Part shown: positions 5,067-54,151 of the stretch, in pieces | Numbering within the stretch: the first letter of the stretch is position 1 | Layout: the number at the start of each line of letters is the position of its first letter | DNA from: Gemmatimonadota bacterium | GTDB lineage: Bacteria; Gemmatimonadota; Gemmatimonadetes; Gemmatimonadales; GWC2-71-9 | DNA: 64,000 nucleotides | NCBI GenBank assembly: GCA_029262195.1 | Contig: JAJCZX010000030.1 | Span: 497,615 to 561,614, forward strand | Reading direction: 5' to 3' | Translations under genes and position numbers: made by a program | The notes under the pieces: model-generated | Seen by the model: the letters and a program-made list of their open reading frames with translations, nothing else | Database searches by the model: none | What the model was told of the DNA's origin: nothing

Positions 5067-5098
5067 TTAATTGTAACACCGGTACGAACTGTTAGTTG

Positions 5099-9843: not shown

Positions 9844-9945
9844 CCGATCGCCCGATTTCGGGTTTATACTGGTAGACAGAAATGATTGAGTGTGAGTATA
9901 GTGGAGCGGGTATCACACTGCAAACATCATCAGGAAACTGCTTGA

Positions 9946-11133: not shown

Positions 11134-11189
11134 GGGGAAGGCGGGAAGCGGGAAGCGGGAAGCGGGAAGCGGGAAGCGGGAAGCGGGAA
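11134..11189. repeat. Heptanucleotide microsatellite: GGGGAAG + (GCGGGAA)x7
   Basis: Counted directly. Seven perfect GCGGGAA units span 11141-11189, preceded by one degenerate in-phase unit. Lies between convergent stop codons at 11133 and 11208. Confidence 0.95.
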
Positions 11190-18613: not shown

Positions 18614-18623
18614 CCAATCACCT

Positions 18624-20645: not shown

Positions 20646-20656
20646 GCCGACGCCCC

Positions 20657-21880: not shown

Positions 21881-23151
21881 TCTCCCCCCTGCGGTGTTCC
21901 GGCCGCCGGTGGCGTGGGACCAACGTTAGGAAGGCGAATGGGGTTTAGATCAACCTCGGATGAGTCCACGACCTCCGGAGGCCGAGCTATGTCAACGAGT
22001 GCCTGTTCGCCGCTACCTGCTGCCCAGAAGACCATGAACATGGCCAACAAGCCGAACGCGATCAAAAGCGATCCGACACGCTTGCCCGGGCGTAGGTCTG
22101 GATTTCGGTCCGTCAAAGGAAGAAGAATCATCGTCAGGCCGACCAGACCTGCCAGAGGGAGTCCCCAGGCACCGAGGTATTTGATTGCAGTAAGCGAAAC
22201 GCTCACCAGTCCCCAGGTGGGCACAATCGTCTCAGGCGGTACCGCAGGATCTGCCAGCGGAGCGAAGGGTCTCGGAAACAACGACGCCAATGAAAACACT
22301 ATAGCAAGCACCAACACCGAAAGGATAAACGAGCGCAGGAGATGCTGGGGGTAGAACTTCATTCCCTCCCCCTCGTGTTTTTTTACGGGTGAGGGAGCCA
22401 CGCCGTGCCGACGGACGAGAAGGAAATGAAAGGTTAGAAGTCCGAACACAATCCATGGCAACAAGACCGCGTGAAGTGCGAAATACCGACTCAACGTCGC
22501 GCCAGAAACCACAGCATCGCCCGTAAGGAATTCAGCGGCTAATCCGCCGAAAATGGGGAGTGCTTCGACCCACCCGAGAATCTCCGTCACGGTCCAGTAG
22601 GCCCACTGATCCCACGGAAGGAGAACACCGGTTGCCCCAAACGCCAGTACCATTCCCAGAAGCAGAACACCGACCAGCCAATTGGTTTCCCGCGGCGACT
22701 TGTAGGCCGCATCGTAGAAAATTCGCAGCATGTGCAGCAGCATCGCAACGACCAGTAGATTGGCCGTCCAGTGGTGAAGATCGCGAACCAACCAGCCAAA
22801 AGGAATCTCAGTTACCATGTGCTGGATACTCTGGTACGCCTCGGCGGCGGAGGGGCGGTAATAAAAAGTCATCAGCACCCCGCTGACTACCTGAACGATG
22901 AACAACAGGTAGGTTACTCCCCCGAATGCATGGCGCCATCCCGCGTGCGGAGGCAAACGGTAATCCAGCGCTTTTTTCAAAGCAGCGTCAATCCTCAATC
23001 GACGATCAATCGGACCATAAAGCAGTCCCAGAAAACGAGCCGCTCCCAAGACACTTGAATCTGTGCTCGCTTTGAGGTCCTCTACTCTCCGCCCCACTGA
23101 CGCGCGCAACGAATCCTTGTTTTCTCTGCGTCTATCCGAGTCTTTAACCAT
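21877..23151 (-). CDS. Cytochrome b of a bc/b6f-type complex (fused cytochrome b6 + subunit IV)
   Basis: 424 aa. FGWLVRDLHHWTANLLVVAMLLHMLRIF...SPRETNWLVGV...LLPWDQWAYW...RYFALHAVLLPWIVFGLLTFHFLLVRRHG aligns without gaps to cytochrome b6. Haem ligand pairs are H126/H140 and H227/H242. The subunit-IV-like part has PTWG where PEWY is expected. Confidence 0.9.
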   Translation of the reverse strand: MVKDSDRRRENKDSLRASVGRRVEDLKASTDSSVLGAARFLGLLYGPIDRRLRIDAALKKALDYRLPPHAGWRHAFGGVTYLLFIVQVVSGVLMTFYYRPSAAEAYQSIQHMVTEIPFGWLVRDLHHWTANLLVVAMLLHMLRIFYDAAYKSPRETNWLVGVLLLGMVLAFGATGVLLPWDQWAYWTVTEILGWVEALPIFGGLAAEFLTGDAVVSGATLSRYFALHAVLLPWIVFGLLTFHFLLVRRHGVAPSPVKKHEGEGMKFYPQHLLRSFILSVLVLAIVFSLASLFPRPFAPLADPAVPPETIVPTWGLVSVSLTAIKYLGAWGLPLAGLVGLTMILLPLTDRNPDLRPGKRVGSLLIAFGLLAMFMVFWAAGSGEQALVDIARPPEVVDSSEVDLNPIRLPNVGPTPPAAGTPQGGE

Positions 23152-23719
23152 TTTGGACCGAAACGAAAACGTATTCTCCCCGTAAGAACACGGAGTATCT
23201 AGAGAGTGGTTCTACCGAAAGACCCCGGACGACTCGGCCGTTTAGGTCATATTCGGCATGTTGACACGGGGAGACGACTCTTCGAGATGGCGCGTCCCAA
23301 TTCAACAGACACCCATCGCCCGAACCAGTGCCCTGAAGAGCAACGTAGCGATCCTCAGTAACGCGGACAACAAGTATCGTGCGTTGTCCCCATGTTATCG
23401 TACGACTACCTCCCACAGGGAAATTGGCCTGTTTGACAACCTGCACGGCCGTCTGCAATTCCGGAATCTCGAGATGTTCTGAGGGCAAGAGATACAACGC
23501 GGTACCCAACCCGAACATGACGGCAATCAAAACTATTATACTGGCCAAAAGCGTCTCCGTGAATCGGAAACGCCCCAACCATGTTGTGAATTGGCGCGAA
23601 GGCGGTGGCACCTCTTCGCCAGCGCCAGGCTGAAGGGGGTCCCTTAAGCCTCTTTCCTTCGTACTACCTGACTCTGATTTCATGACGTTCCCATTGGAGT
23701 AGTCCGGAACAGAATCCAA
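23144..23719 (-). CDS. Rieske-fold membrane-anchored protein lacking the canonical [2Fe-2S] ligands
   Basis: 191 aa (alternative ATG at 23683). One TM helix, then ...ITWGQRTILVVR...GSGDGCLLNWDAPSRRVVSPCQHAEYDLNGRVVRGLSVEPL. This aligns without gaps to CTHLGC..W-x8-CPCHGS.YD..G.VVRGPAP. 8-nt overlap with the cytochrome b start. Confidence 0.6.
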   Translation of the reverse strand: MDSVPDYSNGNVMKSESGSTKERGLRDPLQPGAGEEVPPPSRQFTTWLGRFRFTETLLASIIVLIAVMFGLGTALYLLPSEHLEIPELQTAVQVVKQANFPVGGSRTITWGQRTILVVRVTEDRYVALQGTGSGDGCLLNWDAPSRRVVSPCQHAEYDLNGRVVRGLSVEPLSRYSVFLRGEYVFVSVQNG

Positions 23720-23733
23720 CCGTCTAGTTAATC

Positions 23734-23785
23734 AAAAACGCCGGGCCGCAGCCATGACCTAACATGCAAACAGACCCGGCGTTTT
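23734..23785 (-). terminator. Terminator-like stem (AAAAACGCCGGG ... CCCGGCGTTTT) with a long loop
   Basis: An 11-12 bp inverted repeat at 23734-23745 / 23775-23785 with a 29-nt loop, flanked by A5 and T4-5 so each strand sees a U-tract. Lies between the lipoprotein cytochrome gene and the Rieske-like gene. Confidence 0.4.
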
Positions 23786-23827
23786 CTTTAATAAGAGTGG
23801 TGCCGATAAACCACTCTGTCCAATTCA

Positions 23828-23858
23828 ATTGTGAGCCCCACCCATCGGGGCTCACAAT
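23828..23858 (-). terminator. Strong GC-rich hairpin 17 nt after the stop of the lipoprotein cytochrome gene (no U-tract)
   Basis: ATTGTGAGCCCC-(7 nt)-GGGGCTCACAAT is a perfect 12-bp stem. No T-run follows on the minus strand, so it could be a processing/stability or attenuating element rather than a classical terminator. Confidence 0.45.
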
Positions 23859-23874
23859 GTTTGTGTATTCCTCG

Positions 23875-25314
23875 CTACAATTCCAGATCCAGAGACACCC
23901 TCGTCGCCGGAGCGGAAAGTCCATACTCGGCTCGGAGAGCCTTGATACTCGCCACCAGCACCTGCTCCGCGAAGAACGGGTTGTGCGTAGAAGTGCCAGG
24001 CAACTCCCCGAGGCGGGCGTTGAACCAGGCCCCGTCCGCAACCGTGAATACTCCATCGCGGCTGTCCCGCTCGCCAGCCGGGGCAAGAAGGATGAGGGAA
24101 TCTACTTCAGCCACCAGGGCAGCGATTCTGTTGAGTGCGGTCGTGTAAGCTGTGCGCGCCGCATCGGCCCCAAGGTGGCACCCACTCGTTGTGCAGCCTG
24201 AGAACTGTCTATCCGGAAGGTTGCATGTTTGATCCGTGGTGGGGATTCCCTGAGCATCAACACATGGGATCGCCAGGAACAGGTGTCCTGTGGAATTGAA
24301 GAGGAAATCTCCGGTTTCGTCGTCGTTGACCTCAAACGACGACACGTGACACGCCGCGCAGGTTCTTTCGTTCCCCTCGCTGCCGTGGGAGCCCACAATA
24401 CGATCCGCCAGCGGTTCAAAGCTGGGAGGTATCCAACCAACGCTTTCGCCAAGAAGTAGCGGACCTTCCGGGGAATGCGGTCCACGCAACGTCGAAGATT
24501 CTAGATCCGGCTGCGCGCGTTTGTAGTGGCATTTCATGCACAGGTTGGTTGCCTGTTCCGGTACATCAATCGGATATCTCAGTTGACCTTCGAAGGCAGA
24601 CCCGTGCGGATCGTGGCAGACTGCGCAGGTGATCCCAGCGTAATCGTCAACCGCCGCTGTGGCTTCCAGAAACTCCGGCTCAACCCCCCAGGCATCCAAC
24701 GCCCCTTGCGCGGTATGGCAATTAAGACACTCATCCTCGGGGTCCCCTGCCGCGTGGCTTATGACGAAACCAGCTGGTTCAGCATGAGCCGATTGAGACC
24801 ATTCTTCGGCAAACGGATGATGGGTACCGGAATGGCATTCGCCGCACCCGTTCAACGAATCGACCAAGATCGACGGAAGAGGCTGGCCCGCGTCAGGGTT
24901 TTCGACGTGCGCCAATCCCGGGCCGTGGCAACTTTCGCACTGGACATCGAAGTAAGACGTATCTGACACCAGATTGTGCCCGGCGGCTTCAGATACAAAA
25001 TTCCCCAATTCGCTAACAGTATGACAGCCTTCACAGAAAACCTGGGAATGCCCAGAACCTTCCAATGTGGCCCATGCATCTGCGTGAGCGGTATTCTCCC
25101 AACTCGCCTGAACACCGACGTGGCAGTTCCCGCAGGTGGTTACCTTCTCGGTCTCGTCGAAATACCCGAGGAAACCCGCTATCGAATCGGGCGGGGGATT
25201 AAAAAGTTCTCTGTCCTGAAAGACGATTTTTTCGTCTGTACAAGCTGTCCCGACAATCATCAATCCAAGGGCAGCCACCGTGGCCCGTAGAGCGCCAATT
25301 CTATGCAGTTTCAT
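23875..25314 (-). CDS. Multihaem c-type cytochrome, probable lipoprotein, 8 CxxCH + 1 CX4CH
   Basis: 479 aa. N-terminus MKLHRIGALRATVAALGLMIVGTAC (signal plus lipobox-like Cys). 8 CxxCH motifs counted, plus CTTSGCH. Confidence 0.9.
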   Translation of the reverse strand: MKLHRIGALRATVAALGLMIVGTACTDEKIVFQDRELFNPPPDSIAGFLGYFDETEKVTTCGNCHVGVQASWENTAHADAWATLEGSGHSQVFCEGCHTVSELGNFVSEAAGHNLVSDTSYFDVQCESCHGPGLAHVENPDAGQPLPSILVDSLNGCGECHSGTHHPFAEEWSQSAHAEPAGFVISHAAGDPEDECLNCHTAQGALDAWGVEPEFLEATAAVDDYAGITCAVCHDPHGSAFEGQLRYPIDVPEQATNLCMKCHYKRAQPDLESSTLRGPHSPEGPLLLGESVGWIPPSFEPLADRIVGSHGSEGNERTCAACHVSSFEVNDDETGDFLFNSTGHLFLAIPCVDAQGIPTTDQTCNLPDRQFSGCTTSGCHLGADAARTAYTTALNRIAALVAEVDSLILLAPAGERDSRDGVFTVADGAWFNARLGELPGTSTHNPFFAEQVLVASIKALRAEYGLSAPATRVSLDLEL

Positions 25315-29434: not shown

Positions 29435-29476
29435 GATAGAAGTCAGAAGATAAAAGTTAGTAGAAATGGGTAGGTG
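29435..29476 (+). repeat. Degenerate heptanucleotide array (GATAGAA GTCAGAA GATAAAA GTTAGTA GAAATGG GTAGGTG)
   Basis: Six in-phase 7-nt units fill the gap between the TAA stop (29432-29434) and the tag start region. Confidence 0.7.
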
Positions 29477-29480
29477 ACGT

Positions 29481-30041: not shown

Positions 30042-30047
30042 CAGCAG

Positions 30048-30088
30048 CTCTAACGTATTCTTCCTTCTTCTAACTTCTTTCTTCAACT
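30048..30088 (-). repeat. Degenerate GTTAGAA-type heptamer array (inverted orientation)
   Basis: CTCTAAC...TTCTAAC TTCTTTC TTCAAC contains the exact 12-mer CTTCTAACTTCT at 30067-30078. One 1-nt phase slip. Lies between the convergent stops of tag and the giant gene. Confidence 0.5.
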
Positions 30089-30092
30089 CCCG

Positions 30093-33000
30093 TCAGGGAT
30101 TCACATTCACAACCATGACCCCGTTGGGCGTCTGAACCACACCGGGAATGGTCGCGGAAACCGTCGTAGCACCCTGTGCCAATGGGTCGAATTCAACCCC
30201 TCCACCCAACACGGTGGACGGGGAACTCGAAGCTGTCGCCGGGATGGTTACCGTCACCGATCCGGCCCCTGGGACTGCAGACGTGACCAATTGGCCGATA
30301 GACGCTGCACTGCTCGTTATGGTCGCGGTGAGCGCCGGACCTCCTACTCGAATTGACTGGATCGCTACCGAATTCCCGCTCTGGTAGCCCAGCGTCACCA
30401 GGAAAAGATCGTTTGCGCCCCCGACGGTCGTAAACGTATTCAAGCCGCTCAGGATAAGGGCGGCTGGCGAGATTGTCACTGTCGCGGAGTCACTGACGAA
30501 TCCGGTCACCGTTGCAGTCACGGTCACGCCAGTATTCGACCCAAGGTTCAACGCCTGCGCGTAGTATGTGGCGCGATACGAACCATCGGCAAGATTGATC
30601 TGCAAAGTGCCGGTCCCCGGAGTGGCTGCGTCAGGGGCAAGCAGAAGCAAGCTGGAATCGGAACTGGTAAGCGTCACAGTGACGCCGCCATGGAATCGGC
30701 TGCTAGCCCCGAGGTCAACACAGCTATTGCAGCTACCCTGCAACCCGCCTCCGACAGTCATCCCTGATAGGGTTATCGCGGGCGATGAAATCGCAACATC
30801 CCAATCCGAATTCGGAGTGGGTGCGTGCCCCGGAATTGTGGCTGAGACTGTGGTCATCCCAGCTGTGAGGGGATCCAAGGCGACCCCACCCGGCGCAACC
30901 GTCGTCGGCGTTTGGAACAGTCCGGGCGCAATATCCATCATTATGGATGCCGCAGTATCGGCGTTCGTCACCAGGATTCCGACAGATGGTTGGGAAGTCA
31001 CGACCGTCGTCGTCAAAGTAGGACCGCCCATCCGCACTGCCTGGGCAAACACGCCGTTGCCGCTGGGCCTACCCACCCTCACGTAAAACGGGTCATCCAG
31101 GGAAAGAGTTGTTACGTTGTTCGTCTGGACACCAATAACATCCAGGGCAGGTTGTACAACCGTCATGACAGCGGATCCGTTGCTGAATCCGACATCTGCG
31201 ATCGCGTCAACCGTGACCGAGCCAGTCTGCCCAAGTGCCGTGCCCTGGACATAATATGAAACCAGGTATTGCTGATCCGGCACGAAGATCTGGATGGAAT
31301 CAGAGCCAGCTGTGTTGGCGTCAGGTGATACTAGCAACACCCCAGGATTGGAACTCCTTAGCGTAAGGGTTACTCCACCGTGGCCGCGGTTCTGTATGTT
31401 GAGGTTCACGCAGTTCGAACACTGTTGCTGCAAACCAGCGCCCACCGTTTGGGTTCCCATTGAAATGGCAGGAGCGGTTGTCGTAACCACGAAGTCTGAA
31501 CTCGGTGTCGAGATGAAACCCGGGATGGTCGCGGCTACGGTGGTTGTATCGGCTGTCAGAGCATCAAACGCCACTCCACCCGGGGCAACCGTGGTGGGTG
31601 AGTTGGATGCCCTCACAGGAATGGTTGCCGTCACCGAGCCTGCAGTAATCGCGTTAGTAACCAATTGGCCCACGCTGGGCCGCGAGCTGGTAAAGGTAAC
31701 TGTTGCGGCTTGCCCTCCAGCCCGGATCGCCTGAGTCACGACCCCGCTACCAGACGGATACCCAACCCGCGCGTAAAACGGATCGTCCGCCGATAGCGTT
31801 GTCAAACCTGATGTCTGAAGACCAATTAGTTGGACCCCGGGTTGCCGCACTGAAACCGTTGCAGTATCGGGAACGAACAAAGCTGGCGACGTCGTGACGA
31901 TTACCTGGGCAGAAACGATGCCCGTATCCGCAGCAGCTTCGACCCCCTGCGCCCAGTAGCTGAAGAAATAACTTGAATCCGGCAGGAATACCTGAATAGA
32001 ATCGGTCCCCGGCGTCGAATCGTTCGGGGAAATTAGGAGTGCGGTCGGGTCTGCACTTCTTACGGTAACCGTGACGCCCCCATGGGCCCGGTTCTGGACC
32101 AGAAGATTGACGCAATTACTGCATACCTGTTGGAGTCCCGTTCCAACCGTAGTGCCCGAGGCAGTGAGCGCAGGGGCGGTTGTAGTAACCACCCAATCGG
32201 AATTCGGAGTCGAAATCAGGTTGGGAACGCTCGCGGCGATCGTAGTCGTATCAGCAGTCAACGGATCAAACGCAACTCCACCCGGTGCCACTGTCGTGGG
32301 TGAATTGGAGGCGCCTACTCCAATCGTCACCGTCACCACGGAATCCGTGGTGGTATTGGTCACAAGTTGCCCAACTGCCGGTTGCGAACTCCTGATAGTT
32401 GCAGTGAGAGCTTGCCCGCCAACCCGAATAGGCTGCGAGGCCACTCCGTTACCACTTGGATACCCTACACGTACGTAAAATGGATCGTCAGGAGAAAGCG
32501 TTGTCAAACCTGTCGTCGATAGCGACACCAGGTCTATCGCGGCCTGTCTTACAGATGTGGTGCCCGTGTCAGGCTGGAAGATTGCGGGGCTCGTCGTGAC
32601 CACAACTCCGGCAGCAACATTGCCTGTGTCGGCAGCAAACTCGACACCATTCGCTGTATAGCTGAAGAAATATTGCTGGTCCGGAAGGAAGACCTGAATT
32701 GAATCGGTGCCCGCCGTCAGATTGTTTGGCGAAAGCAACAGCGCTCCCGGATCCAGACTCCTTACGGTGACCGTAACTCCTCCGTGAGCTCGATTTTGAA
32801 TACCGAGATTCACGCAACCGTTGCAATTCTGTTGTAAGCCTGTGCCAACAGTGGTACCGGAAGCCGTTATCGTCGGTGCGGTCGTGGTCACTACCCGATC
32901 AGCATTCGGAGTCATGATGACGCCGGGAATTGACGCCGCAATCGTCGTCGTGTCCGCCAAAAGCGGATCGAAGGCCACGCCGCCCGTCGCAACCGTTGTC

Positions 33001-36000
33001 GGGGAATTCGCGACCCCAACCGGAATAGTCACCGTAGCGATCGAATCGGTCGCGGAAGTTGTGGTAAGTTGCCCCACCGTCGGTTGGGAACTGCGGATCG
33101 TAGCGGTAAGGACCTGGCCACCGGCTCGAATAGACTGACTCGCAACGCCACTCCCACTCGGGTAACCTACCCGCACGTAGAAGGGATCATCTGCCGAAAG
33201 TGTTGTCAGACCACCGGTAGAAAGTCCAATTATCTCTACCCCGAGTTGTCGCACAGAAACGTTGGCCTGCGCCGATTGAAACAGGGTGGGACTCGCAGTT
33301 GCCATTACGGCGGCCGTGGCTATGCCCGTATCGGCAGCCGCTTCCACTCCCTGTACATAGTAGGTGAAGAAATACTGTTGGTCGGCCAGGAAAACCTGGA
33401 TCGAATCGGTGCCAGGGGTGCTCGCATCCGGGGATATGAGGAGCAACGAGGGGTCAAGACTCTTGACGGTTATCGTTACCCCGCCGTGGTCGCGGTTGTT
33501 GAACCCGAGATTGACACAATTGCCGCACGATTGCTGCAAGCCTGTCGCCACCGTGGTCCCGCTTAGAGAAATAGCAGGCGCGGCATTCACGGTAACGGTC
33601 ACGACATCGGAGTTAATGCTGGGGCCGGTCGCAGTTAGAACCGCGTTACATGTAGTGATCGCACTCCCCCCGTAACGGGGATTGGCGGTTGCCGAAACAA
33701 AACCTGCTCCGATCACGACCGAATCCATCACCGCGCAGGTGGAGTCGCTTGAGACGAACAGTACTTGGACCCCTCCCACCGGGGCCGGAATTGGCTGTCC
33801 TCCACTTTCAAGCTGGATAGTGACGTCGGGTCCGAACAACTCGTTGATCGTCACACCGGTTGTCGTGATATTGAAGTTCGCAGTCGTGGTAGCCACGCTC
33901 TGGGCATTCCCAAAGCTGGCCGATTGTGCAGTGATTGTCGCAACACCCGGAGCAGCCCCGTTTAGGATCACACTACCAAGGCTCGAACCCTGTGGTATCG
34001 TCGTCATCGCGGTTTGAACGCTTACCGCAGTCGGGTTGCCACTAAGTACCGTAACCGTCACACCACCGACGGGAGCCGGAGCGGAAAGTTGTATTGGCAG
34101 CGACGCGGTCCCGCCGAACGGAACGTTGACGGTCCCCGGCAGGCTCATGACCTGAGTTGATCCGTCGACGTTTAACATTCCGCTTGTAAAGCCCGGGGCT
34201 GCCCCGGTTATGGTTGCCGTCCCCGCCGCAATGGCGTTGAGAACGATCGTTCCAGTAGTCATGCCAGAGTCGACAAACACAGTATCGGGCATCGCCACTG
34301 TTATCACATTGGTGTTGCCACTCGTCACTTGGACCGGGAGACTATCGACCGCCGAAGGTGCCGTCAGTGTCACGGTCAGGGTGTCAGTACCGCCCACCGC
34401 AATCCGATCTGACGGCATTGACAGCAGTATCGACGGGTTGGGGAAATTAGCTGTTGCCGTCGCAATTACCGGCGTGAGGCCGGTGGCGGAAGCTGTAAGG
34501 GTTTGGGTGATTGCCGAAACGCCGAGGGTCCAGTTGGTCGAAGCATTGCCGGCGCTCGTAGTGACGCTGGTAGAGCCGGACAGACTACCGAAAGCAGTCG
34601 CCCAATTTATGGTGACTCCACCGACTCCATTACCGTACTGATCCCGAACTCCGACAACCACTTGGGTCGGCAAGGGCATCCCAGCGTCTGCCAATTGGTT
34701 ATTGCCGGATACAACGATCATTGAGACCGCAGTATCAGCAATCCCTGTGGCATTGAACAAAACCGGCGGCAACGTGTCGACTGTTGCCGAAATGGTGTTT
34801 AGCCCCGCAATCGTATCAATTGTCCAACCACCCAGGATCGCGACGCCCATCAAGTCGGTCACCATCGTGGCCCCTGACAACTGGCCGTTGCCGTTTACCA
34901 CAGAGAAGGTCACGGTTTGTCCGCCAAGAGGTTGTCCAAGGACGTCCGTGACCAGCACAGAGGGGGGCGTGACGACCAGTCTTCCCACCGTGGCCGACTG
35001 GCTGGTTGCCGAATTTGCTACGATGTTTTGCGGCCCACCACCTCCAGCCCCAGCATTGACGGTGACTATAAGTGAGTCAGCGACACCGCCGGTTGAGACT
35101 ATGATCGTATCGACGCCGTTGGCTACTGCGCGCACATGTGCTACGTCGACTATTATGACACCGACAGAGTCAATAACCACAGAGGTCGAATCCAGAACAT
35201 TCCACGTGAATGTCCGACCCGTTAGCTGGTTGCCCCCTGCGTCGAACGCGACTACCGGAATTATCCCGGTCTCGTTGATCGCCACCGCCGTTGCGGTATC
35301 GGCAAGCGGGAATCCGTTACTGCTATCCGAGTCCAACATTACAACGCTCGCCACGACACCCAGGACAACATCAAACGCGACCGAAGTATCGGACGGCAAC
35401 GCACCCACCATCGCTTCAAGTTGGTAACCGGTCCCGAGCAAATCGATGGACAGATCCGGGAAAGTGGCCGTACCACCCGCAACAGTTTGTGGAATTGTGC
35501 CCGACAGGGTGGCCCCCTGCGCACCGGTGCCCGGCACAATCACGATCTGGACCTGGGAGGTCGAGTCGTTATCGGCGAAGTTGTTAAACTGATCGTAAAG
35601 CCCCACCTGCACGGCCGGCGATATCGCTGAGCCCGCCGGCACGTCAGTGGGTTCGGTCGTTATCAAGACCGAGTTCACCGGCCCCGGGGTGGCCTGCGCG
35701 GTAAACGTCACAGTCAACGTATCAACCATCATTATTGACGTTTCGGGTTCCGTGACTACATCTGGTTCCTGGAAGTGCCGATCAATCCGAGCCTCTCGGT
35801 CTTTCTCCAATTCATCCAGGATTTCGTCATCGGAGTCCAGAAGTTCTGATGGGTTCCGATCAACCTGGCCCGGTGGAGACAGCGGGGTGCTGGTAATTAG
35901 CTCGGCGATTAGAGTGTTCGTTCCCGCGACCGTGCCCATGACCCAAGTCCCCACCGACGCGGTGCCACTGGAGTCGGTTGTCGCCGGTGTTCCTGTCACA

Positions 36001-37289
36001 CTTCCGCCACCCGCCGATACACTAAAGTCAATCATTACCCCTGAAACGGGATTGCCCAAGGAATCCGTAAGAAGTACAGACGGAGCGATGGGCGCATTCG
36101 TGTTGACCTGTACCGATTGGCCCTGGCCTGCGTCAACGGTGAGGATCGCTGGCGGACCAGGATCGGCACCAGCGGTTACGGTAACGTTCACGCCTGCTGC
36201 TTCGATCGCGGTAGCTGTTAAGGTCTGGGGGCCGGCGACGGTCCCGAGCGTCCAATCGGTCGACACGATGCCCAGGCTGTCAGTTTTTACGGTATCCGGA
36301 CTCACAGTCCCGGCGGTGGTCGTGAATACGACGGTGGCATTCCGAACTATGATTCCGTCGGCTGCCCTAACTTCAACCACAATTGGAGCCTGGAGCGCGC
36401 TGCCAGCAACGCCCACCTGATCGTCACCGGCGATCACATTCATAGCACTTGGCACCGGCTGTACAGCAACCAACACCGTGTCCGTCTGGCCAGTTAGAAG
36501 TTCGGCAACAATCCGGGCGTCACCTCGCTGACTACCACCCACTACCAGTGGAAAACGGGGATCGGGGACATCGGCCCGGGCGGCATCAAGACTCTTCCAA
36601 CCAATCGGCGTGTTAGCGATTGGCTCCCCTGCATTGTCGAGGGCCACAGCTGCAAGAGCAGTAGTGTCTCCGAAAAACACCACCGGATTAAGAGTGGTGA
36701 TATGGACTCCGGTCGCATCGGCGCCGGTTCCCGTGTAATCGAGAGGCAGGTCAACAACTCCGCTGGAATCCGATCCCGAGGGATTGGACGAAGTGACGGG
36801 AGAAACATTTTCGATAAAGCCAACGAATACTACCTCACCCGTGGGTGAAATAAGCGACATGCGAAGATTGAACCGGTCATCATCTGAGAACACAGGCACG
36901 GTGAGCGACAGGTCGACCGTGTCGCCGACCACCTGGGCCACCGTGTCCAAAACAAGTGTGTCGTCAAAAACGCGTCGCACTTCAGCGCGAACCGAATCGA
37001 TGTCAACCAGCCCCGACATCGAACTGGCGAAGGATGGATTAAGTGAAAAACGAGCATCAATCGGTCGTTGAGGCCCGGAAGAATCGTCCCGACAAGTGAG
37101 AAACACCAACCCAAAGAGTGCAACAAGAAGGGCGTGTTTTATTCTGTGCGAACTACGCAAGCTTCCAGAAACCAATAATCTCCACCTTCCAGGACAATCG
37201 TGGGCCGCCGCCCGAGGGACACCAAGTCCGACCTTTTTGGGGCCGAAACGTTGACCGTTGACAGAATTCCCAACACCCATCCACCTCAA
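30093..37289 (-). CDS. Giant (up to 2398 aa) cell-surface protein with bacterial Ig-like repeats and five C-terminal tandem modules
   Basis: The longest ORF in the window. The N-terminal hydrophobic segment ends in LVFLTC (possible lipobox). The real start may be the TTG near 37170, which is preceded by GGTGGAG. Multiple Ig-like (Big-type) units have the pattern GDDQ/GNNQ..G..L..P..V.V.D..GN.V.G..V.F...G.G......T.D..G.A...WTLG. Ser/Thr/Gly/Val-rich. Confidence 0.85.
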   Translation of the reverse strand: MRWMGVGNSVNGQRFGPKKVGLGVPRAAAHDCPGRWRLLVSGSLRSSHRIKHALLVALFGLVFLTCRDDSSGPQRPIDARFSLNPSFASSMSGLVDIDSVRAEVRRVFDDTLVLDTVAQVVGDTVDLSLTVPVFSDDDRFNLRMSLISPTGEVVFVGFIENVSPVTSSNPSGSDSSGVVDLPLDYTGTGADATGVHITTLNPVVFFGDTTALAAVALDNAGEPIANTPIGWKSLDAARADVPDPRFPLVVGGSQRGDARIVAELLTGQTDTVLVAVQPVPSAMNVIAGDDQVGVAGSALQAPIVVEVRAADGIIVRNATVVFTTTAGTVSPDTVKTDSLGIVSTDWTLGTVAGPQTLTATAIEAAGVNVTVTAGADPGPPAILTVDAGQGQSVQVNTNAPIAPSVLLTDSLGNPVSGVMIDFSVSAGGGSVTGTPATTDSSGTASVGTWVMGTVAGTNTLIAELITSTPLSPPGQVDRNPSELLDSDDEILDELEKDREARIDRHFQEPDVVTEPETSIMMVDTLTVTFTAQATPGPVNSVLITTEPTDVPAGSAISPAVQVGLYDQFNNFADNDSTSQVQIVIVPGTGAQGATLSGTIPQTVAGGTATFPDLSIDLLGTGYQLEAMVGALPSDTSVAFDVVLGVVASVVMLDSDSSNGFPLADTATAVAINETGIIPVVAFDAGGNQLTGRTFTWNVLDSTSVVIDSVGVIIVDVAHVRAVANGVDTIIVSTGGVADSLIVTVNAGAGGGGPQNIVANSATSQSATVGRLVVTPPSVLVTDVLGQPLGGQTVTFSVVNGNGQLSGATMVTDLMGVAILGGWTIDTIAGLNTISATVDTLPPVLFNATGIADTAVSMIVVSGNNQLADAGMPLPTQVVVGVRDQYGNGVGGVTINWATAFGSLSGSTSVTTSAGNASTNWTLGVSAITQTLTASATGLTPVIATATANFPNPSILLSMPSDRIAVGGTDTLTVTLTAPSAVDSLPVQVTSGNTNVITVAMPDTVFVDSGMTTGTIVLNAIAAGTATITGAAPGFTSGMLNVDGSTQVMSLPGTVNVPFGGTASLPIQLSAPAPVGGVTVTVLSGNPTAVSVQTAMTTIPQGSSLGSVILNGAAPGVATITAQSASFGNAQSVATTTANFNITTTGVTINELFGPDVTIQLESGGQPIPAPVGGVQVLFVSSDSTCAVMDSVVIGAGFVSATANPRYGGSAITTCNAVLTATGPSINSDVVTVTVNAAPAISLSGTTVATGLQQSCGNCVNLGFNNRDHGGVTITVKSLDPSLLLISPDASTPGTDSIQVFLADQQYFFTYYVQGVEAAADTGIATAAVMATASPTLFQSAQANVSVRQLGVEIIGLSTGGLTTLSADDPFYVRVGYPSGSGVASQSIRAGGQVLTATIRSSQPTVGQLTTTSATDSIATVTIPVGVANSPTTVATGGVAFDPLLADTTTIAASIPGVIMTPNADRVVTTTAPTITASGTTVGTGLQQNCNGCVNLGIQNRAHGGVTVTVRSLDPGALLLSPNNLTAGTDSIQVFLPDQQYFFSYTANGVEFAADTGNVAAGVVVTTSPAIFQPDTGTTSVRQAAIDLVSLSTTGLTTLSPDDPFYVRVGYPSGNGVASQPIRVGGQALTATIRSSQPAVGQLVTNTTTDSVVTVTIGVGASNSPTTVAPGGVAFDPLTADTTTIAASVPNLISTPNSDWVVTTTAPALTASGTTVGTGLQQVCSNCVNLLVQNRAHGGVTVTVRSADPTALLISPNDSTPGTDSIQVFLPDSSYFFSYWAQGVEAAADTGIVSAQVIVTTSPALFVPDTATVSVRQPGVQLIGLQTSGLTTLSADDPFYARVGYPSGSGVVTQAIRAGGQAATVTFTSSRPSVGQLVTNAITAGSVTATIPVRASNSPTTVAPGGVAFDALTADTTTVAATIPGFISTPSSDFVVTTTAPAISMGTQTVGAGLQQQCSNCVNLNIQNRGHGGVTLTLRSSNPGVLLVSPDANTAGSDSIQIFVPDQQYLVSYYVQGTALGQTGSVTVDAIADVGFSNGSAVMTVVQPALDVIGVQTNNVTTLSLDDPFYVRVGRPSGNGVFAQAVRMGGPTLTTTVVTSQPSVGILVTNADTAASIMMDIAPGLFQTPTTVAPGGVALDPLTAGMTTVSATIPGHAPTPNSDWDVAISSPAITLSGMTVGGGLQGSCNSCVDLGASSRFHGGVTVTLTSSDSSLLLLAPDAATPGTGTLQINLADGSYRATYYAQALNLGSNTGVTVTATVTGFVSDSATVTISPAALILSGLNTFTTVGGANDLFLVTLGYQSGNSVAIQSIRVGGPALTATITSSAASIGQLVTSAVPGAGSVTVTIPATASSSPSTVLGGGVEFDPLAQGATTVSATIPGVVQTPNGVMVVNVNP
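30096..33590 (-). repeat. Five tandem ~230-233-aa coding modules at the C-terminus of the giant protein
   Basis: Each module starts ...TTTAP.I(T/S).SG.TVG.GLQQ.C..CVNL..QNR.HGGVT.T.RS..P..LL.SP... and ends ...TTVAPGGVAFD.LTADTT..A..P....TP.SD..V. I counted modules of 233 and 230 aa. The left boundary is approximate. Confidence 0.8.
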
Positions 37290-45783: not shown

Positions 45784-45786
45784 GAG

Positions 45787-45856
45787 GTCGGAAGTAAGAA
45801 GAAAGACGTTAGAAGAAAAAGCTCTAACTTCCGATTTCTAACTTCTAATTTCCTAG
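45787..45856. repeat. Palindromic heptamer array: 5 forward GTTAGAA-type units + 5 inverted units
   Basis: GTCGGAA GTAAGAA GAAAGAC GTTAGAA GAAAAAG | CTCTAAC TTCCGAT TTCTAAC TTCTAAT TTCCTAG. Lies between convergent stops and overlaps the PAP2 stop codon at 45853-45855. Confidence 0.75.
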
Positions 45857-51553: not shown

Positions 51554-52759
51554 CTACCCTGTCATCCCCCTGAAGTCCGCCCCCGTAGGATTCTGGAAGA
51601 CACTCAACCCGAACTCCGGCACAATTGCCAGAAGATGATCAAAGATGTCCGATTGCAGGCCTTCGTAGGCGATCCAGTCGGTGTCGTTTGAGAAGACATA
51701 TATCTGAATCGGGACACCATGAATTCCGGGCTCCAACTGACGAATCAGGAAAGTCATTTTGTCGTGTATCATCGGGTGGCTGCGCAAATATCCAGCTATG
51801 TAAGCCCTGAAGGTACCGATGTTAGTGAGCTTCCTGGAGTTGGCGATGATGCCCGAAGCATCATTCTTATTGGCCTCAGCTAGCGCTTTTTTCTTTTCAC
51901 ATATGTATTCGTCAAGAGCACGAAATTTTTCAAAACGCTCGAGGTCATCGTCTTCCAAAAAGCGGATCGAGTGCATATCCAGATTTATCGATCTTTTGAT
52001 CCGCCTGCCGCCGGACAACGACATTCCTCGCCAGTTCTTAAACGAGTCATCGATGAGCTTGTAGGTAGGGATCGTCGTGATCGTTTTGTCCCAGTTCTGG
52101 ATCTTGACAGTGTGGAGGGCAATGTCTATTACATCACCATCGGCCGAGTATTTCGGCATCTCAATCCAGTCCCCTACTCTGACCATGTCGTTACTGGCTA
52201 TCTGCACGCTGGCAACCAGCGAAAGAATAGTGTCCTTGAAAATGAGGAGTAGAACCGCCGTCAGGGCACCGACACCGCTGAGTAGCAACAACGGCGACCG
52301 GCCCAGCAGGTTGGCCACAACAACAACGGCGCCTAGTGCAAAGAGGATGATTTTGAGGACCTGAAGGTAGCCTTTGATGGGCCGAGTTTTCGAAACTGGA
52401 TACCTGCTGTAAATCTCGCCCGCTGCATTAATGAGCCCGCTGGCCGATGCAAGCAAAACGATCAACATGATCGCAACTGAAAGCCGCTCAACGTGGGATT
52501 GCAGGCCTTCCGGGATCCCGGGGACGATCTGAGCGCCGTAGTAAATGACCATCGCTGGCGCGATATGGGCCAATCGCTCAAATACCAGGTTACTGTGCAA
52601 GGCGTCGTCCCAATCGCTTTCGGTCTTCTTCACGAAACGCACGATAAGTCGAGCGACAAGTCTGGAAGCGATTAGATAACTGATGTATGCGCCGAGAAGA
52701 ACAATCAGGGTTCCGAGAATTGAGTCAGCGTATGGGAGGTCGGCGAAGAATTGAGACAT
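51554..52759 (-). CDS. Mechanosensitive ion channel (MscS) family protein
   Basis: 401 aa. Several TM helices, then VRVGDWIEMPKYSADGDVIDIALHTVKIQNWDKTITTIPTYKLIDDSFKNW (MscS beta-domain signature). Confidence 0.85.
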   Translation of the reverse strand: MSQFFADLPYADSILGTLIVLLGAYISYLIASRLVARLIVRFVKKTESDWDDALHSNLVFERLAHIAPAMVIYYGAQIVPGIPEGLQSHVERLSVAIMLIVLLASASGLINAAGEIYSRYPVSKTRPIKGYLQVLKIILFALGAVVVVANLLGRSPLLLLSGVGALTAVLLLIFKDTILSLVASVQIASNDMVRVGDWIEMPKYSADGDVIDIALHTVKIQNWDKTITTIPTYKLIDDSFKNWRGMSLSGGRRIKRSINLDMHSIRFLEDDDLERFEKFRALDEYICEKKKALAEANKNDASGIIANSRKLTNIGTFRAYIAGYLRSHPMIHDKMTFLIRQLEPGIHGVPIQIYVFSNDTDWIAYEGLQSDIFDHLLAIVPEFGLSVFQNPTGADFRGMTG

Positions 52760-52913
52760 GAGTAAAGTCAGGAGTTAGAAGTTAGAAGTCAGACGGGGAA
52801 AGTTGTCAGTTGTCAATTGTCAGATGTCAGATGTCAGATGTCAGTTGTCAGTTGTCAGATGTCAGATGTCAGATGTCAGATGTCAGATGTCAGATGTCAG
52901 ATGTCAGATGTCA
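52760..52913. repeat. 22-unit in-phase heptanucleotide tandem array ending in (GATGTCA)8
   Basis: Counted base by base: GAGTAAA GTCAGGA GTTAGAA GTTAGAA GTCAGAC GGGGAAA (GTTGTCA)2 ATTGTCA (GATGTCA)3 (GTTGTCA)2 (GATGTCA)8 = 154 nt. Starts at the base adjacent to the mscS-family start codon (52757-52759). Confidence 0.95.
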
Positions 52914-53028
52914 GATCGGCTCGAAAGTAGCTCATTCGTCGGAGACTTTCCACCGGGCGCCGGGAATCTTTGAGGCCCGTCCGGTGTCAAACACCCCACA
53001 GTTACCTTTAACACATGAAACGCCTTGC

Positions 53029-53056
53029 TTCCTACTTCTAACTTCTTACTTATTAC
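53029..53056 (-). repeat. Four inverted GTTAGAA-type heptamers (TTCCTAC TTCTAAC TTCTTAC TTATTAC)
   Basis: In-phase 7-nt units that end 6 nt before the ADH start codon (53063). Contains the exact 12-mer CTTCTAACTTCT at 53035-53046. Confidence 0.8.
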
Positions 53057-53062
53057 GTTCAA

Positions 53063-54151
53063 ATGCTCAAAGCCGCAGTAATGACCGCGCCCAACGCGCC
53101 AATCGAAATGTGGGAGTTGCCAACTCCAGAAATGGAGCACGGTGCTGTACTTCTGCAGACCGTAGCCAGTGAGGTGTGTGGCACCGACGTGCACCTTCAC
53201 AACGGGCAGCTTGCTGGCGTCCCTTATCCCATCATCCCCGGACACGTGTCGGTAGGACGGGTTGCGGAGATGTGCGGAGTATCTCACGATTTCAACGGTG
53301 AAGAACTGCGGCAGGACGATCTGGTAACGTTTTATGACGTTCATGAAATTTGTGGCGAATGTTGGTTTTGCCTCGTGTCCAAACAACCCAATCGTTGCCC
53401 CGCGCGCAAAGTGTATGGAATTACGTATTCGGCGAATGACGGGCCAATGGGGGGCTGGGCTGAACAGATCTACCTCAAACCGGGTGTAAAGGTATTCAAA
53501 ATCCCTGAGGGCCTCAGCGCCGACGACATCATCGGAGGCGGTTGCGGACTTTTCACGGGCTTCGCTGCGGTTGACCGTGCCCAGGTTCGTCTTGGTGATC
53601 GTGTTCTTGTGCAGGGAACCGGACCTGTGGGCCTCTGTGCGATCAACTTCGCCTCGCTCAGTGGAGCATCCCACATAGTCGCCATCGGCGACCCCGACGC
53701 TCGGCTGGCACTCGCAAAAGACATGGGAGCCGACGAGACGCTATCGGTGAGCGGAAGCAGCAAAGAAGAACGTCACGACCGGGTAATGGAATTAAGCGAC
53801 GGACGAGGATTCGACGTTGTGATCGAAGCGACGGGCCATCCGTCGGCAATAAAAGAAGGTATGGGCCTGACCAGAGATGCTGGCACCTATGTGGTCGCTG
53901 GCCATTACACCGATGCCGGCCCAACCAGCATCAACCCACATTCCGACATTAATCGCAAGCACATAAAAGTGCTGGGTCAATGGGGTACCGACCTTGGACA
54001 CATAGCTCGTGCCCTAATTGTGGTTGGAAAGCACAGACCTCCCCTGGCAAGGATCGCGGGGGGCATCTATTCTTTGGAAAACGCAGAGGAGGCCCTCAAG
54101 GATGTCGGAAACCTCAGGGTGACCAAAGCGATAATAACTCCGCAAGATTAA
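53063..54151 (+). CDS. Zinc-dependent alcohol dehydrogenase family (MDR) oxidoreductase
   Basis: 362 aa. VASEVCGTDVHLHNG...PIIPGHVSVGRV (catalytic Zn ligands), CGECWFCLVSKQPNRC (structural Zn) and VLVQGTGPVGL (Rossmann). Confidence 0.85.
   Translation: MLKAAVMTAPNAPIEMWELPTPEMEHGAVLLQTVASEVCGTDVHLHNGQLAGVPYPIIPGHVSVGRVAEMCGVSHDFNGEELRQDDLVTFYDVHEICGECWFCLVSKQPNRCPARKVYGITYSANDGPMGGWAEQIYLKPGVKVFKIPEGLSADDIIGGGCGLFTGFAAVDRAQVRLGDRVLVQGTGPVGLCAINFASLSGASHIVAIGDPDARLALAKDMGADETLSVSGSSKEERHDRVMELSDGRGFDVVIEATGHPSAIKEGMGLTRDAGTYVVAGHYTDAGPTSINPHSDINRKHIKVLGQWGTDLGHIARALIVVGKHRPPLARIAGGIYSLENAEEALKDVGNLRVTKAIITPQD

Follow-up and report, generated by a model that had tools for sequence, protein, structure and literature searches.

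In the 64-kb window analysed here, that is, the whole stretch of 64,000 nt, an MscS-family channel gene and a zinc-type alcohol dehydrogenase (ADH) gene stand back to back, separated by a spacer of 303 nt (positions 52760-53062) that consists largely of 7-base tandem repeats reaching both start codons (Table 1). The coordinates, the spacer length and the 12-mer positions given in a preliminary description of this DNA are exact to the base. The MscS reading frame begins with the ATG at 52757-52759, which is directly adjoined by the repeats, aligns with the N-termini of homologues and is preceded by an in-frame TAA 18 nt upstream, as read from the sequence. The ADH of relatives likewise has 362 aa, and the best named protein matches come from Gemmatimonadota/Acidobacteriota MAGs at only 60-65% identity. 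A repeat-encoded peptide was also considered, given two plus-strand ORFs (52803-52973 and 52810-53172), and was rejected: these ORFs exist across the core of the repeats only because the GWTGTCA strand is devoid of stop codons, and one of the two continues into ADH in another frame. In the MscS sense, all three frames of the core are closed because each unit carries a TGA.

Table 1. Genes and repeat features of the MscS/ADH locus and selected heptamer arrays elsewhere in the window
Feature	Position	Strand	Evidence or remarks
MscS-family mechanosensitive channel gene, 401 aa	51554..52759	-	Pfam PF00924, E=1.1e-15
MscS-proximal leader	52760..52801	-	TRF period 7, lag-7 identity, motif positions
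Core array	52802..52913	-	16 units, 112 nt; TRF, unit cutting, lag-7 identity
Central non-repetitive single-copy segment	52914..53021	.	without period-7 signal
ADH-proximal leader	53022..53062	+	TRF period 7, lag-7 identity
Zinc-type alcohol dehydrogenase family gene, 362 aa	53063..54151	+	Pfam ADH_N + ADH_zinc_N
(GGGAAGC)7.7 array between convergent genes	11135..11189	+	TRF score 101
CT-rich heptamers between convergent genes	30042..30092	+	TRF
Inverted GTTAGAA-type heptamers, spacer between convergent genes	45784..45852	.	TRF

The spacer contains three heptamer arrays, namely a 16-unit GWTGTCA core and two short degenerate GTYAGRA arrays adjoining the two starts. On the plus strand, the core reads (GTTGTCA)2 ATTGTCA (GATGTCA)3 (GTTGTCA)2 (GATGTCA)8, which corresponds to (TGACATC)/(TGACAAC), i.e. 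CATCTGA/CAACTGA, in the MscS sense. Tandem Repeats Finder (TRF) reports period 7 for all three arrays: 52804-52916 in the core (16.1 copies, 95% matches, score 191), 52765-52793 on the MscS side (4.1 copies, 81%) and 53024-53056 on the ADH side (4.7 copies, 76%). When the lag-7 self-identity of the spacer parts was compared with 5000 shuffles, the core reached 0.95 as compared to 0.26+-0.04, a value matched by none of the 5000 shuffles. The same holds for the ADH-proximal 41 nt (0.65 versus 0.30+-0.07; 0/5000), and for the MscS-proximal 42 nt (0.60 versus 0.31+-0.07) a single shuffle of 5000 came up to the observed value. The central 108 nt are not periodic (0.31, matched by 518/5000 shuffles). 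The arrays thus belong to the class of heptanucleotide SSRs (STRR/LSSR), being head-to-tail 7-nt units in at least three copies and far above chance, and they have the intergenic location of this class, between confirmed MscS and ADH genes. The preliminary description had counted 22 consecutive in-phase heptamers from 52760 to 52913. Its list of units could be reproduced, but GAGTAAA and GGGGAAA are unconvincing as units, and the TGAC motif is 3 nt out of register between the MscS-proximal and the core families. Biologically, the MscS side is better described as 16 core and about four proximal units joined by a linker than as 22 homogeneous units; the ADH side comprises about four to five. Independent k=31 assemblies of the same organism from three sequencing runs, which were found by exact-protein look-up, recover the two flanks together with the first 11 complete units as counted from MscS. 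Hence, the array is real and not the assembly artefact that had been considered initially. All k=31 contigs stop within the perfect (GATGTCA)8 run, and its count of eight units is provisional.

Read in the sense of its own gene, each short array forms a leader. The MscS leader (CTTTCCC CGTCTGA CTTCTAA CTTCTAA CTCCTGA CTTTACTC-ATG) is made of degenerate CTRACTY heptamers with TGAC or TAAC at -32, -25, -18 and -11, and the ADH leader (CTTGCTT CCTACTT CTAACTT CTTACTT ATTACGT TCAA-ATG) of pyrimidine-rich heptamers. Both repeats point towards their own gene and come to within a few nt of its start, with the last TGAC at -11 of MscS and the ADH heptamers ending 6 nt upstream of the ATG. The two leaders are identical at 26 of 44 positions when a 1-nt offset is allowed, and ACTTCTAACTTCT is present in both, read in the sense of the respective gene, at -30 to -18 in the case of MscS and at -29 to -17 in the case of ADH. 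The preliminary description had seen the 12-mer AGAAGTTAGAAG at 52777 and its reverse complement at 53035 as an inverted bracket around the array. There is no need for such a bracket, as the inverted 12-mers are best read as this one motif, placed sense-oriented before each ATG.

A hairpin-based reading of the same inverted sequences seems most improbable to us. It holds that the GTTAGAA arms (52765-52795 and 53021-53051) pair in a whole-spacer transcript and sequester a start, or that the array was brought in by a MITE whose terminal inverted repeats they represent. Indeed, the arms show 77-81% complementarity across 26-31 nt and are paired on both strands in whole-spacer folds, a second inverted heptamer hairpin is present at 45784-45852 (-19.4 kcal/mol, z=-1.77), and a repeat-containing hairpin is used by the hmw 5'-UTR (PMC12721329). 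However, only a transcript covering the entire spacer forms the long-range stem. Such a transcript would have to start at or inside the start codon of the neighbouring gene, and the minus-strand fold is no better than that of shuffles (z=-0.41). The MITE variant was rejected: the central segment is single-copy, with no second copy in the 64-kb window or among 252 loci, a target-site duplication is not apparent, and the arms are explained by the same leader motif present in sense before two divergent genes.

Neither start codon is preceded by a motif resembling a Shine-Dalgarno (SD) sequence, that is GGAG, GAGG or AGGA were not found upstream of the MscS or the ADH ATG; other genes of the window do carry an SD-like motif. 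No 16S rRNA gene is located within the window. In predicted folds, ADH and MscS possess the two least structured initiation regions of the 44 genes in the window, with MFE values of -1.4 kcal/mol for ADH (-0.4 in another fold) and -2.9 kcal/mol for MscS (-50 to +15) as compared to a median near -13. The core is likewise predicted to be unstructured as MscS-sense RNA (MFE -11.8 versus -18.9+-3.3 in shuffles, z=+2.18; centroid without pairs), and its opposite strand yields z=-3.16. The sequence UAACUU presumably resembles the T7 epsilon enhancer UUAACUUUA.

The central segment is the only place in the spacer for conventional promoters. A promoter and terminator scan detected no credible sigma-70 promoter in the spacer, including its non-repetitive centre, and the only match was the repeat-internal CTGACA-17-GACAAT. 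Two short GC-rich hairpins are predicted in the central segment. Searching the spacer against Rfam gave no match at gathering scores; mir-999, retrieved in E-value mode, was dismissed as a chance match (18 bits versus a gathering score of 58). If MscS transcription starts within the proximal units, the core would be promoter-upstream DNA and not part of a leader. The TGTCA/TGACA units could be iterated DNA sites bound cooperatively by a putative transcription factor or nucleoid protein at the divergent promoter(s), an explanation we regard as very unlikely. With a distance of 150-260 nt to the ADH start, the core has a plausible position for an upstream activating region; CTGACA, a 5/6 match to TTGACA, is present in each unit and one unit carries TTGACA exactly; and heptad promoters are known, e.g. 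the ToxR/H-NS (TTTTGAT)n repeats of ctxAB and the heptameric direct repeats of SARPs. Yet no regulator gene is adjacent, the arrays end only a few nt short of the start codons, in DNA that must be downstream of the promoters, and the pronounced strand preference with respect to the following ATG that is seen across phyla (see below) is not expected of a DNA site.

Heptamer arrays are also present in other spacers of the window, at 5090, 11135, 29435, 30049, 45808 and 63717. Altogether, TRF lists eight period-7 rows within the window. At a moderate threshold, six lag-7 regions were obtained as compared to zero to three for every other lag from 4 to 12, and at a strict threshold regions remained at lag 7 and its multiple 14 only. 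Period 7 is therefore the dominant tandem period of the window, which harbours many arrays. Absence of arrays elsewhere, named in the preliminary description as a point that would speak against its interpretation, does not apply because heptamer arrays occur in these other spacers. A third copy of the 12-mer (CTTCTAACTTCT) is located at 30067 in reverse-complement orientation. Not every array can be a translational leader, because arrays also fill spacers between convergent genes (11135, 30042 and 45784) and one (29435-29480) precedes an SD-bearing gene in the reverse orientation. These convergent sites fit the view that the heptamers are a neutral by-product of slippage, to which we return below.

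The array is a recent gain in this lineage, because relatives with the same gene order (loci L004-L010; MscS identity 73%) have a spacer of 125 nt between ADH and MscS that contains no array. This spacer carries only two TAACT motifs, 21 nt apart, which are conserved between two of the relatives' spacers while the surrounding bases diverge. Positional conservation of TAACT with respect to the start was considered and dropped, as the motifs lie at -61/-40 in the relatives and at -25/-18 here. In the protein database, no MscS relative between 73% and 100% identity was found, and no orthologous array pairs were present among the 120 genome loci listed, which gave repeat-to-repeat matches only. 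Turnover of arrays is fast, because relatives at 81-84% identity lack the 11135 array or carry different heptamers at this site.

Such turnover is also what a DNA-level contingency locus would produce. That is, as inferred in the preliminary description, slippage by 7 bp could shift the spacing or rotation of divergent promoters or regulator sites and cause phase-variable or graded transcription, comparable to the (ATCTTTC)n repeats of hmw1A. It had been argued in the preliminary description that 7 nt is not a helical repeat. This is correct for one unit, but three units make 21 bp or two turns at 10.5 bp per turn, so that the rotational phase returns every third unit. Ongoing slippage is implied by the perfect 8-unit run and the 95% unit identity, and the missing array in relatives, the replacement at the 11135 spacer and 7-nt indels between Cyanothece strains (PMC4679880) are in line with this idea. 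In H. influenzae, the (ATCTTTC)n repeats of hmw1A/hmw2A are phase-variable 5'-UTR repeats located between promoter and start codon, and hmw expression is inversely proportional to the heptamer number (PMC12721329). As pyrimidine-rich 7-nt SSRs upstream of a start codon, they resemble the spacer arrays. However, the mechanism at hmw involves a long hairpin with one G-rich arm, a substrate of RNase III (PMC12721329), whereas the MscS-sense array is predicted to be unstructured and no host-interaction gene is involved. The bacterium appears to be environmental and free-living, neither MscS nor ADH is a typical contingency gene, and a purely DNA-spacing mechanism does not predict a cross-phylum strand bias and abutment to the ATG. 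We therefore consider a contingency locus of this kind unlikely.

Intergenic heptanucleotide repeats are a class that has been known since 1990 and re-described several times, the classical STRR units of heterocyst-forming cyanobacteria being CCCCAGT, TTGGTCA and CAACAGT. The spacer arrays are an example of this class (STRR/LSSR) and not a new type of element. The likeness to cyanobacterial STRR arrays noted in the preliminary description holds, as does that to the long SSRs of Mrazek et al. 2007: period 7, intergenic location, many arrays, several unit families and rapid turnover are shared. STRRs in the strict sense they are not, since the host is no cyanobacterium and the units are unlike the three canonical ones. 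By comparison of sequence and arrangement, the TAACTGA-type repeats (MacGregor 2015, PMC4679880) fit especially well. These repeats, described for Beggiatoaceae, Thiocystis, Cyanobacteria and some Bacteroidetes (MacGregor 2015, Front Microbiol, PMC4679880), are intergenic, in 'forward' orientation and within a few nt of start codons at which a canonical RBS is rare; in related strains the spacers are shorter and free of repeats, and a role in translation was suggested (PMC4679880). Likewise, the repeats studied here lie in a spacer near the ATG without canonical RBS, are mixed with related heptamers, consist of stop-containing units and are missing from the shorter spacer of relatives. The units CATCTGA, CAACTGA, TAACTTC and TGACTTC differ from TAACTGA by 1-2 nt, and an exact TAACTGA is absent. 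Unlike in the TAACTGA reports, both genes of a divergent pair carry a leader, and the 16-unit core exceeds the two to six copies typical of the Beggiatoaceae genome. A further type, the G-rich GGGAATC/GGGGAYT heptamers of Xanthomonas and Nostoc (Rehm et al. 2015, PMC4692102), is also intergenic, sometimes forms inverted pairs, lies near ORFs and varies in length between related genomes. The (GGGAAGC)7.7 array of the window is of this type, whereas the MscS/ADH array is not G-rich and cannot form a G-quadruplex. In Nostoc, reporter data show an effect of start-codon-proximal heptamer repeats on expression (bioRxiv 10.1101/2022.06.06.494920).

The preliminary description had noted that such arrays were not known for this kind of genome. 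This understates the literature, which covers Beggiatoaceae, Thiocystis and Bacteroidetes (PMC4679880) as well as Xanthomonas (PMC4692102), and the units also occur in Acidobacteriota, Planctomycetota, Chloroflexota and others among the matches listed in our scan. In species-representative genomes, (GWTGTCA)x3 gave at least 120 matches, as compared to about two expected by chance. Array-bearing groups among the matches listed are Acidobacteriota, Planctomycetota, Bacteroidota, Chloroflexota, Cyanobacteria, Calditrichia, Latescibacterota, Poribacteria, Myxococcota and some Proteobacteria; the TGACAAC unit was found, again among the matches listed, in Nostoc, Calothrix, Tolypothrix, Microcoleus and others. 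This spread exceeds the narrow distribution reported for TAACTGA. We then compared, for both array orientations, how often an ORF of at least 100 aa starts within 40 nt downstream of the array. Among the matches listed, this was the case for 52 of 106 arrays in the TGACAWC orientation and for 10 of 106 in the opposite one (binomial p=6e-8). Similarly, (CTRACTY)x4 arrays in metagenomes were forward in 18 and reverse in five cases within 40 nt of a start, and forward in 12 and reverse in two within 20 nt, among the matches listed. The array-associated starts are ATG in 49 of 65 cases among the matches listed. Only seven of these 65 (11%) have an SD-like motif, versus 21% in a crude control (p=0.05), a depletion of marginal significance only, and gene calls in the loci were crude. 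Between the last TRAC and the ATG, distances vary broadly (-4 to -33) with no preferred value. A fixed SD-like spacing is thus not supported, which argues against specific base pairing of the SD type.

The orientation bias could reflect tolerance instead of function, as the G/U-rich strand would fold and block initiation. On the neutral view, slippage-born heptamers persist where they are harmless, and the bias arises from purifying selection against G/U-rich structure and stop-free repeats near starts. In many genomes, no other class of long SSRs is as abundant as heptamers, and slippage has been proposed as the explanation, 7-nt units being considered especially prone to it (Mrazek 2007 via PMC4679880; PMC4692102). 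In addition, unit sequences differ between sites and relatives, and the spacing to the ATG is not fixed. On the other hand, the same few units (CTRA+3 nt) recur in many phyla far above chance, two TAACT motifs are kept between the relatives' spacers amid diverged bases, and the arrays are at least initiation-competent, because they occupy the ribosome-binding position without SD in 58 of 65 cases among the matches listed. Purely neutral persistence therefore appears doubtful to us.

Taken together, the reading we favour, which we judge about evenly balanced between right and wrong, is that the repeats are slippage-generated, G-poor and unstructured mRNA leaders of the STRR/TAACTGA-like class that allow SD-independent initiation. 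The arrays would have arisen recently in this lineage by replication slippage, of which the long perfect run is a signature that points to ongoing slippage. In both genes, the mRNA sense corresponds to the G-poor, C/U/A-rich strand with units CTRACTY and CTGACAW, in which three units close all reading frames because each unit carries TAA or TGA. These units fill the space up to the ATG where an SD site normally sits and most likely act at the RNA level, by providing an unstructured 5' leader for SD-independent initiation. This leader may act as a standby or S1-type site; alternatively, a single-strand-binding protein, e.g. a cold-shock protein, may use it as a platform. The 16-unit core would belong to the MscS side, its unit number tuning expression gradually and not in an on/off manner. 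The analysis itself shows that the arrays exist, their period and orientation, the missing SD, the predicted absence of structure, the biased orientation of arrays next to start codons in many phyla and the lack of an array in syntenic relatives; we infer that the arrays are transcribed, that translation is affected and that the unit number varies.

A more far-reaching version, which we put forward only tentatively, is that (CTRA+3 nt)n arrays represent a widespread cross-phylum alternative to the SD that is read by a conserved single-strand RNA-binding factor and forms a slippage-tuned translation 'rheostat'. In this scenario, the arrays would be oriented, unstructured and stop-codon-rich mRNA leaders, and ribosomal protein S1 or a cold-shock-domain protein would be the candidate reader. 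Expansion and contraction of the arrays by slippage would provide each gene with evolvable translation control. The present locus would then be an extreme case, with both divergent genes equipped and one leader expanded (22 heptads).

Thus, the locus is an ordinary though unusually clean case of intergenic heptanucleotide repeats. What the analysis adds is that a few units recur far above chance in species-representative genomes of at least 10 phyla and in metagenomes, strongly strand-biased, at the RBS position and typically without SD. If only tolerance of slippage is involved, the arrays show which SD-less leaders the ribosomes of many phyla accept. If functional, they may be relevant to gene-start prediction in MAGs as well as to assembly, because short-read graphs break at heptamer arrays, and they could point to a common way of starting or controlling translation in environmental bacteria that has been overlooked.

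Cutting the sequence in sevens returned the 22 heptamers at 52760-52913 exactly as the preliminary description had listed them for the spacer between the MscS-family channel gene and the zinc-type alcohol dehydrogenase (ADH) gene. Its wording of twenty-two in-phase units is formally true, but the biology is that of 16 plus about four units with a linker between them: 'GAGTAAA' and 'GGGGAAA' are unconvincing as repeat units, and the TGAC core is shifted by 3 nt in register between the proximal and the core families. Self-identity at lag 7 was 0.95 in the core array (52802-52913) as compared to 0.26+-0.04 in shuffles, 0.60 in the 42 nt adjoining the MscS start (equalled by 1 of 5000 shuffles) and 0.65 in the 41 nt upstream of the ADH start (equalled by 0 of 5000); by the same comparison, periodicity was not found in the central 108 nt (52914-53021). 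These data confirm that the heptamer array lies far beyond chance. Nor is it an assembly artefact, as had been considered beforehand, since independent k=31 assemblies of three runs recovered the two flanks together with the 11 complete units nearest to MscS. All independent contigs (L001-L003) stop inside the perfect (GATGTCA)8 run (56 nt, 52858-52913), and the count of eight comes from the window sequence alone. In these short-read k=31 assemblies of three runs from the same organism, heptamer arrays are systematic contig breakpoints, and are therefore expected to be under-represented in short-read MAGs.

The MscS start codon is in line with the N-termini of aligned homologues. Read in MscS sense, the core is made of (TGACATC)/(TGACAAC), equivalent to CATCTGA/CAACTGA, and the proximal leader reads CTGACTT CTAACTT CTAACTC CTGACTT TACTC-ATG; the proximal ADH leader reads CCTACTT CTAACTT CTTACTT ATTACGT TCAA-ATG in its own sense. 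ACTTCTAACTTCT occupies -30 to -18 in the former and -29 to -17 in the latter, and, when offset by 1 nt, the two leaders agree in 26 of 44 positions. Thus, the same pyrimidine-rich motif stands before each gene, each time in the gene's own sense orientation. This accounts for the exact 12-mer at 52777-52788 and its reverse complement at 53035-53046, both located correctly in the preliminary description, so that neither a hairpin nor terminal inverted repeats need be invoked; the 12-mer occurs a third time at 30067. A mobile element as the origin of the array is argued against by the central segment, which is single-copy. Each sense-strand unit contains TAA or TGA, and since 7 cannot be divided by 3, every reading frame is closed within three units. 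The strand opposite the MscS-sense core is devoid of stop codons and thereby mechanically yields ORFs of 56 and 120 aa across the core, which we rejected as genes.

The motifs GGAG, GAGG or AGGA, present upstream of many other window genes, were not found in the MscS or ADH leader. When the regions from -50 to +15 of 44 window genes were folded, that of ADH was the least structured (-1.4 kcal/mol), followed by MscS (-2.9; median about -13) and, in third place, by the methyladenine glycosylase gene, which also has upstream heptamers. The predicted fold of the 176-nt MscS-sense array RNA was weaker than 200 of 200 shuffles (z=+2.18, centroid unpaired), whereas that of the opposite strand was stronger than every shuffle (z=-3.16). 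In our best-supported reading, which we regard as an even bet, slippage-generated, sense-oriented, G-poor and unstructured mRNA leaders replace the Shine-Dalgarno (SD) sequence at both genes, the MscS-side array having expanded recently. Were a single transcript to cross the entire spacer, pairing would be predicted between the antisense of one leader and the other leader; such a transcript would have to begin at or within the neighbouring gene, and on the minus strand the whole-spacer fold is unexceptional (z=-0.41). A promoter scan of the non-repetitive centre did not find a recognisable promoter. Two short GC-rich hairpins without a U-tract (CACCGG...CCGGTG and GAAAGT...ACTTTC, minus strand; 52940-53010) are candidates for regulator sites or for RNA structures.

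The window is part of a 731-kb NCBI contig, and its lineage is uncultured and has a poor placement. The best named protein matches came from Gemmatimonadota and Acidobacteriota MAGs, at 60-65% identity only. The contigs of the nearest MscS homologues (73% identity) keep the divergent ADH-MscS arrangement and the wider gene order, and the array was not found in their 125-nt ADH/MscS spacer. This spacer contains only TAACTTC and TAACTAA, 21 nt apart, which are the same in both relatives while the adjoining bases differ. At the place of the 11135 array, the spacer of an 81% relative (L131) is only 10 nt long and free of arrays, and an 84% relative (L132) carries other heptamers, namely AGTTAGA/GTTTAGA and (GTTGCAC)3. 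The differing spacers thus show rapid gain, loss and replacement of arrays at fixed intergenic sites. The relatives syntenic at MscS/ADH have a four-codon mini-ORF, ATG GGT CGC A/CAG TAA, joined to the MscS start by a TAATG overlap (L004 5984-6003; L010 4966-4985). It may encode a leader peptide with translational coupling, and no such mini-ORF is present in the MscS leader of the window. A block of ~70 nt 5' of the aminomethyltransferase-family gene, which includes TGGTGGACAGGAATGACTGGATGTGAGTATAGTGGAGCGGGTAAC.CACAGCAAACGTCTTC, is near-identical in relatives of 81-84% protein identity (window 9870-9945; L131 3140-3213; L132 690-764). A search for an Rfam match to this block found none, covariation was none and its predicted structure is weak; its probable role is that of a promoter or operator also used by the divergent FAD-oxidoreductase operon.

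The presence of heptamer arrays elsewhere in the genome was borne out, as several further spacers of the window carry them (see table). Period 7 is the preferred tandem period in the window: a strict threshold returned regions at lag 7 and its multiple 14 only, and a moderate one six lag-7 regions as compared to 0-3 at every other lag between 4 and 12. The G3-N4 spacing at 11135-11189 is of the G-quadruplex type, as in the GGGAATC repeats of Xanthomonas. An SD-like AGGTGA comes after the purine-rich units of 29435-29480. The heptamers of 45784-45852 form a predicted hairpin (-19.4 kcal/mol, z=-1.77), which may be a 3'-end structure working in both directions. Elsewhere in the window, a single ORF on the minus strand, opened by TTG, spans 30093-37289 (2398 aa), and 13365-25314 holds at least six multihaem c-type cytochrome genes (Cytochrome_C7, c3 and MtrC/MtrF-like domains) plus a cytochrome b gene, a set that points to electron transfer by an extracellular or periplasmic module.

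Heptamer arrays detected in the window
Feature	Position	Copies and scores	Context
Period-7 array (Tandem Repeats Finder)	52804-52916	16.1 copies, 95% matches, score 191	
Period-7 array (Tandem Repeats Finder)	52765-52793	4.1 copies	
Period-7 array (Tandem Repeats Finder)	53024-53056	4.7 copies	
(GGGAAGC)7.7 array	11135-11189		74-nt spacer between convergent aminomethyltransferase-family and molybdopterin oxidoreductase genes
CT-rich units	30042-30092		Downstream of methyladenine glycosylase gene; includes third copy of CTTCTAACTTCT
Purine-rich units AGAAGTC AGAAGAT AAAAGTT AGTAGAA	29435-29480		Upstream of methyladenine glycosylase gene, reverse orientation
Inverted GTTAGAA-type heptamers	45784-45852		Entire spacer between two convergent genes
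Short heptamer array	5090		
Short heptamer array	63717		

The preliminary interpretation is supported in part. Its comparison with STRR-like heptanucleotide simple sequence repeat (SSR) loci stands, similar arrays being present elsewhere in the genome, and the mechanism of promoter rotation and phase variation that it put forward is a hypothesis. Its statements on helical phase and novelty need correction: 7 nt was said not to be a helical repeat, yet 21 bp make two turns, and such arrays, of which it knew no description for this kind of genome, have already been described outside cyanobacteria. The units found here are one or two bases apart from TAACTGA, for which MacGregor (2015; PMC4679880) reports 169 sets of direct repeats in a 'Maribeggiatoa' genome, mostly a few nucleotides 5' of start codons and forward-oriented, canonical ribosome-binding sites being rare there. 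The same paper mentions the repeats in other Beggiatoaceae, Thiocystis, Cyanobacteria and five Bacteroidetes, their intermixing with other heptamers, shorter and repeat-free spacers in close relatives, 7-nt indels between Cyanothece strains, and ribosomal protein S1, cold-shock proteins and CsrA as proposed partners. It also cites Mrazek et al. (2007), in whose analysis heptamers outnumbered every other class of long SSR and who put forward polymerase slippage as an explanation. The GGGAAGC array is of the same type as the G-rich GGGAATC heptamers of Xanthomonas and Nostoc analysed by Rehm et al. 2015 (PMC4692102). Start-proximal heptamers are reported to affect reporter expression in Nostoc (preprint, bioRxiv 10.1101/2022.06.06.494920), and (ATCTTTC)n of H. 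influenzae lies within the transcribed hmw 5' UTR and acts via an RNase III-processed hairpin (PMC12721329).

Among bacteria represented by one genome per species, (GWTGTCA)3 gave at least 120 matches, as compared to about 2 expected by chance. Those listed came from Cyanobacteria, Acidobacteriota, Planctomycetota, Bacteroidota, Chloroflexota, Calditrichia, Latescibacterota, Poribacteria and Myxococcota, with a few Proteobacteria, Thiocystis included. Of the 106 listed arrays with enough flank, 52 were followed within 40 nt by an ORF of at least 100 aa in the TGACAWC orientation versus 10 in the opposite one (p=6e-8). Among the listed matches, 49 of 65 array-associated starts were ATG, and an SD-like motif was present at 7 of 65 as compared to 21% in a crude control (p=0.05). 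In metagenomes, (CTRACTY)4 gave at least 120 matches, and forward exceeded reverse arrays by 18 to 5 within 40 nt and by 12 to 2 within 20 nt among those listed. The last TRAC lies anywhere from -4 to -33 relative to the start, which makes precise SD-like pairing unlikely; a better fit is a generic role, as an unstructured or standby sequence, or else protein coating. At least 10 phyla carry (TGACAWC)n and (CTRACTY)n far more often than chance would give (loci L011-L130 and L133-L252), and both unit types are strongly biased towards having the G-poor strand in the mRNA, directly against ATG starts without SD. Tolerance, and not function, could lie behind this strand bias. The distribution of the two unit types is much wider than the literature gives for TAACTGA, and it is their breadth and strong orientation across many phyla that are more interesting than the single locus, itself of modest interest.
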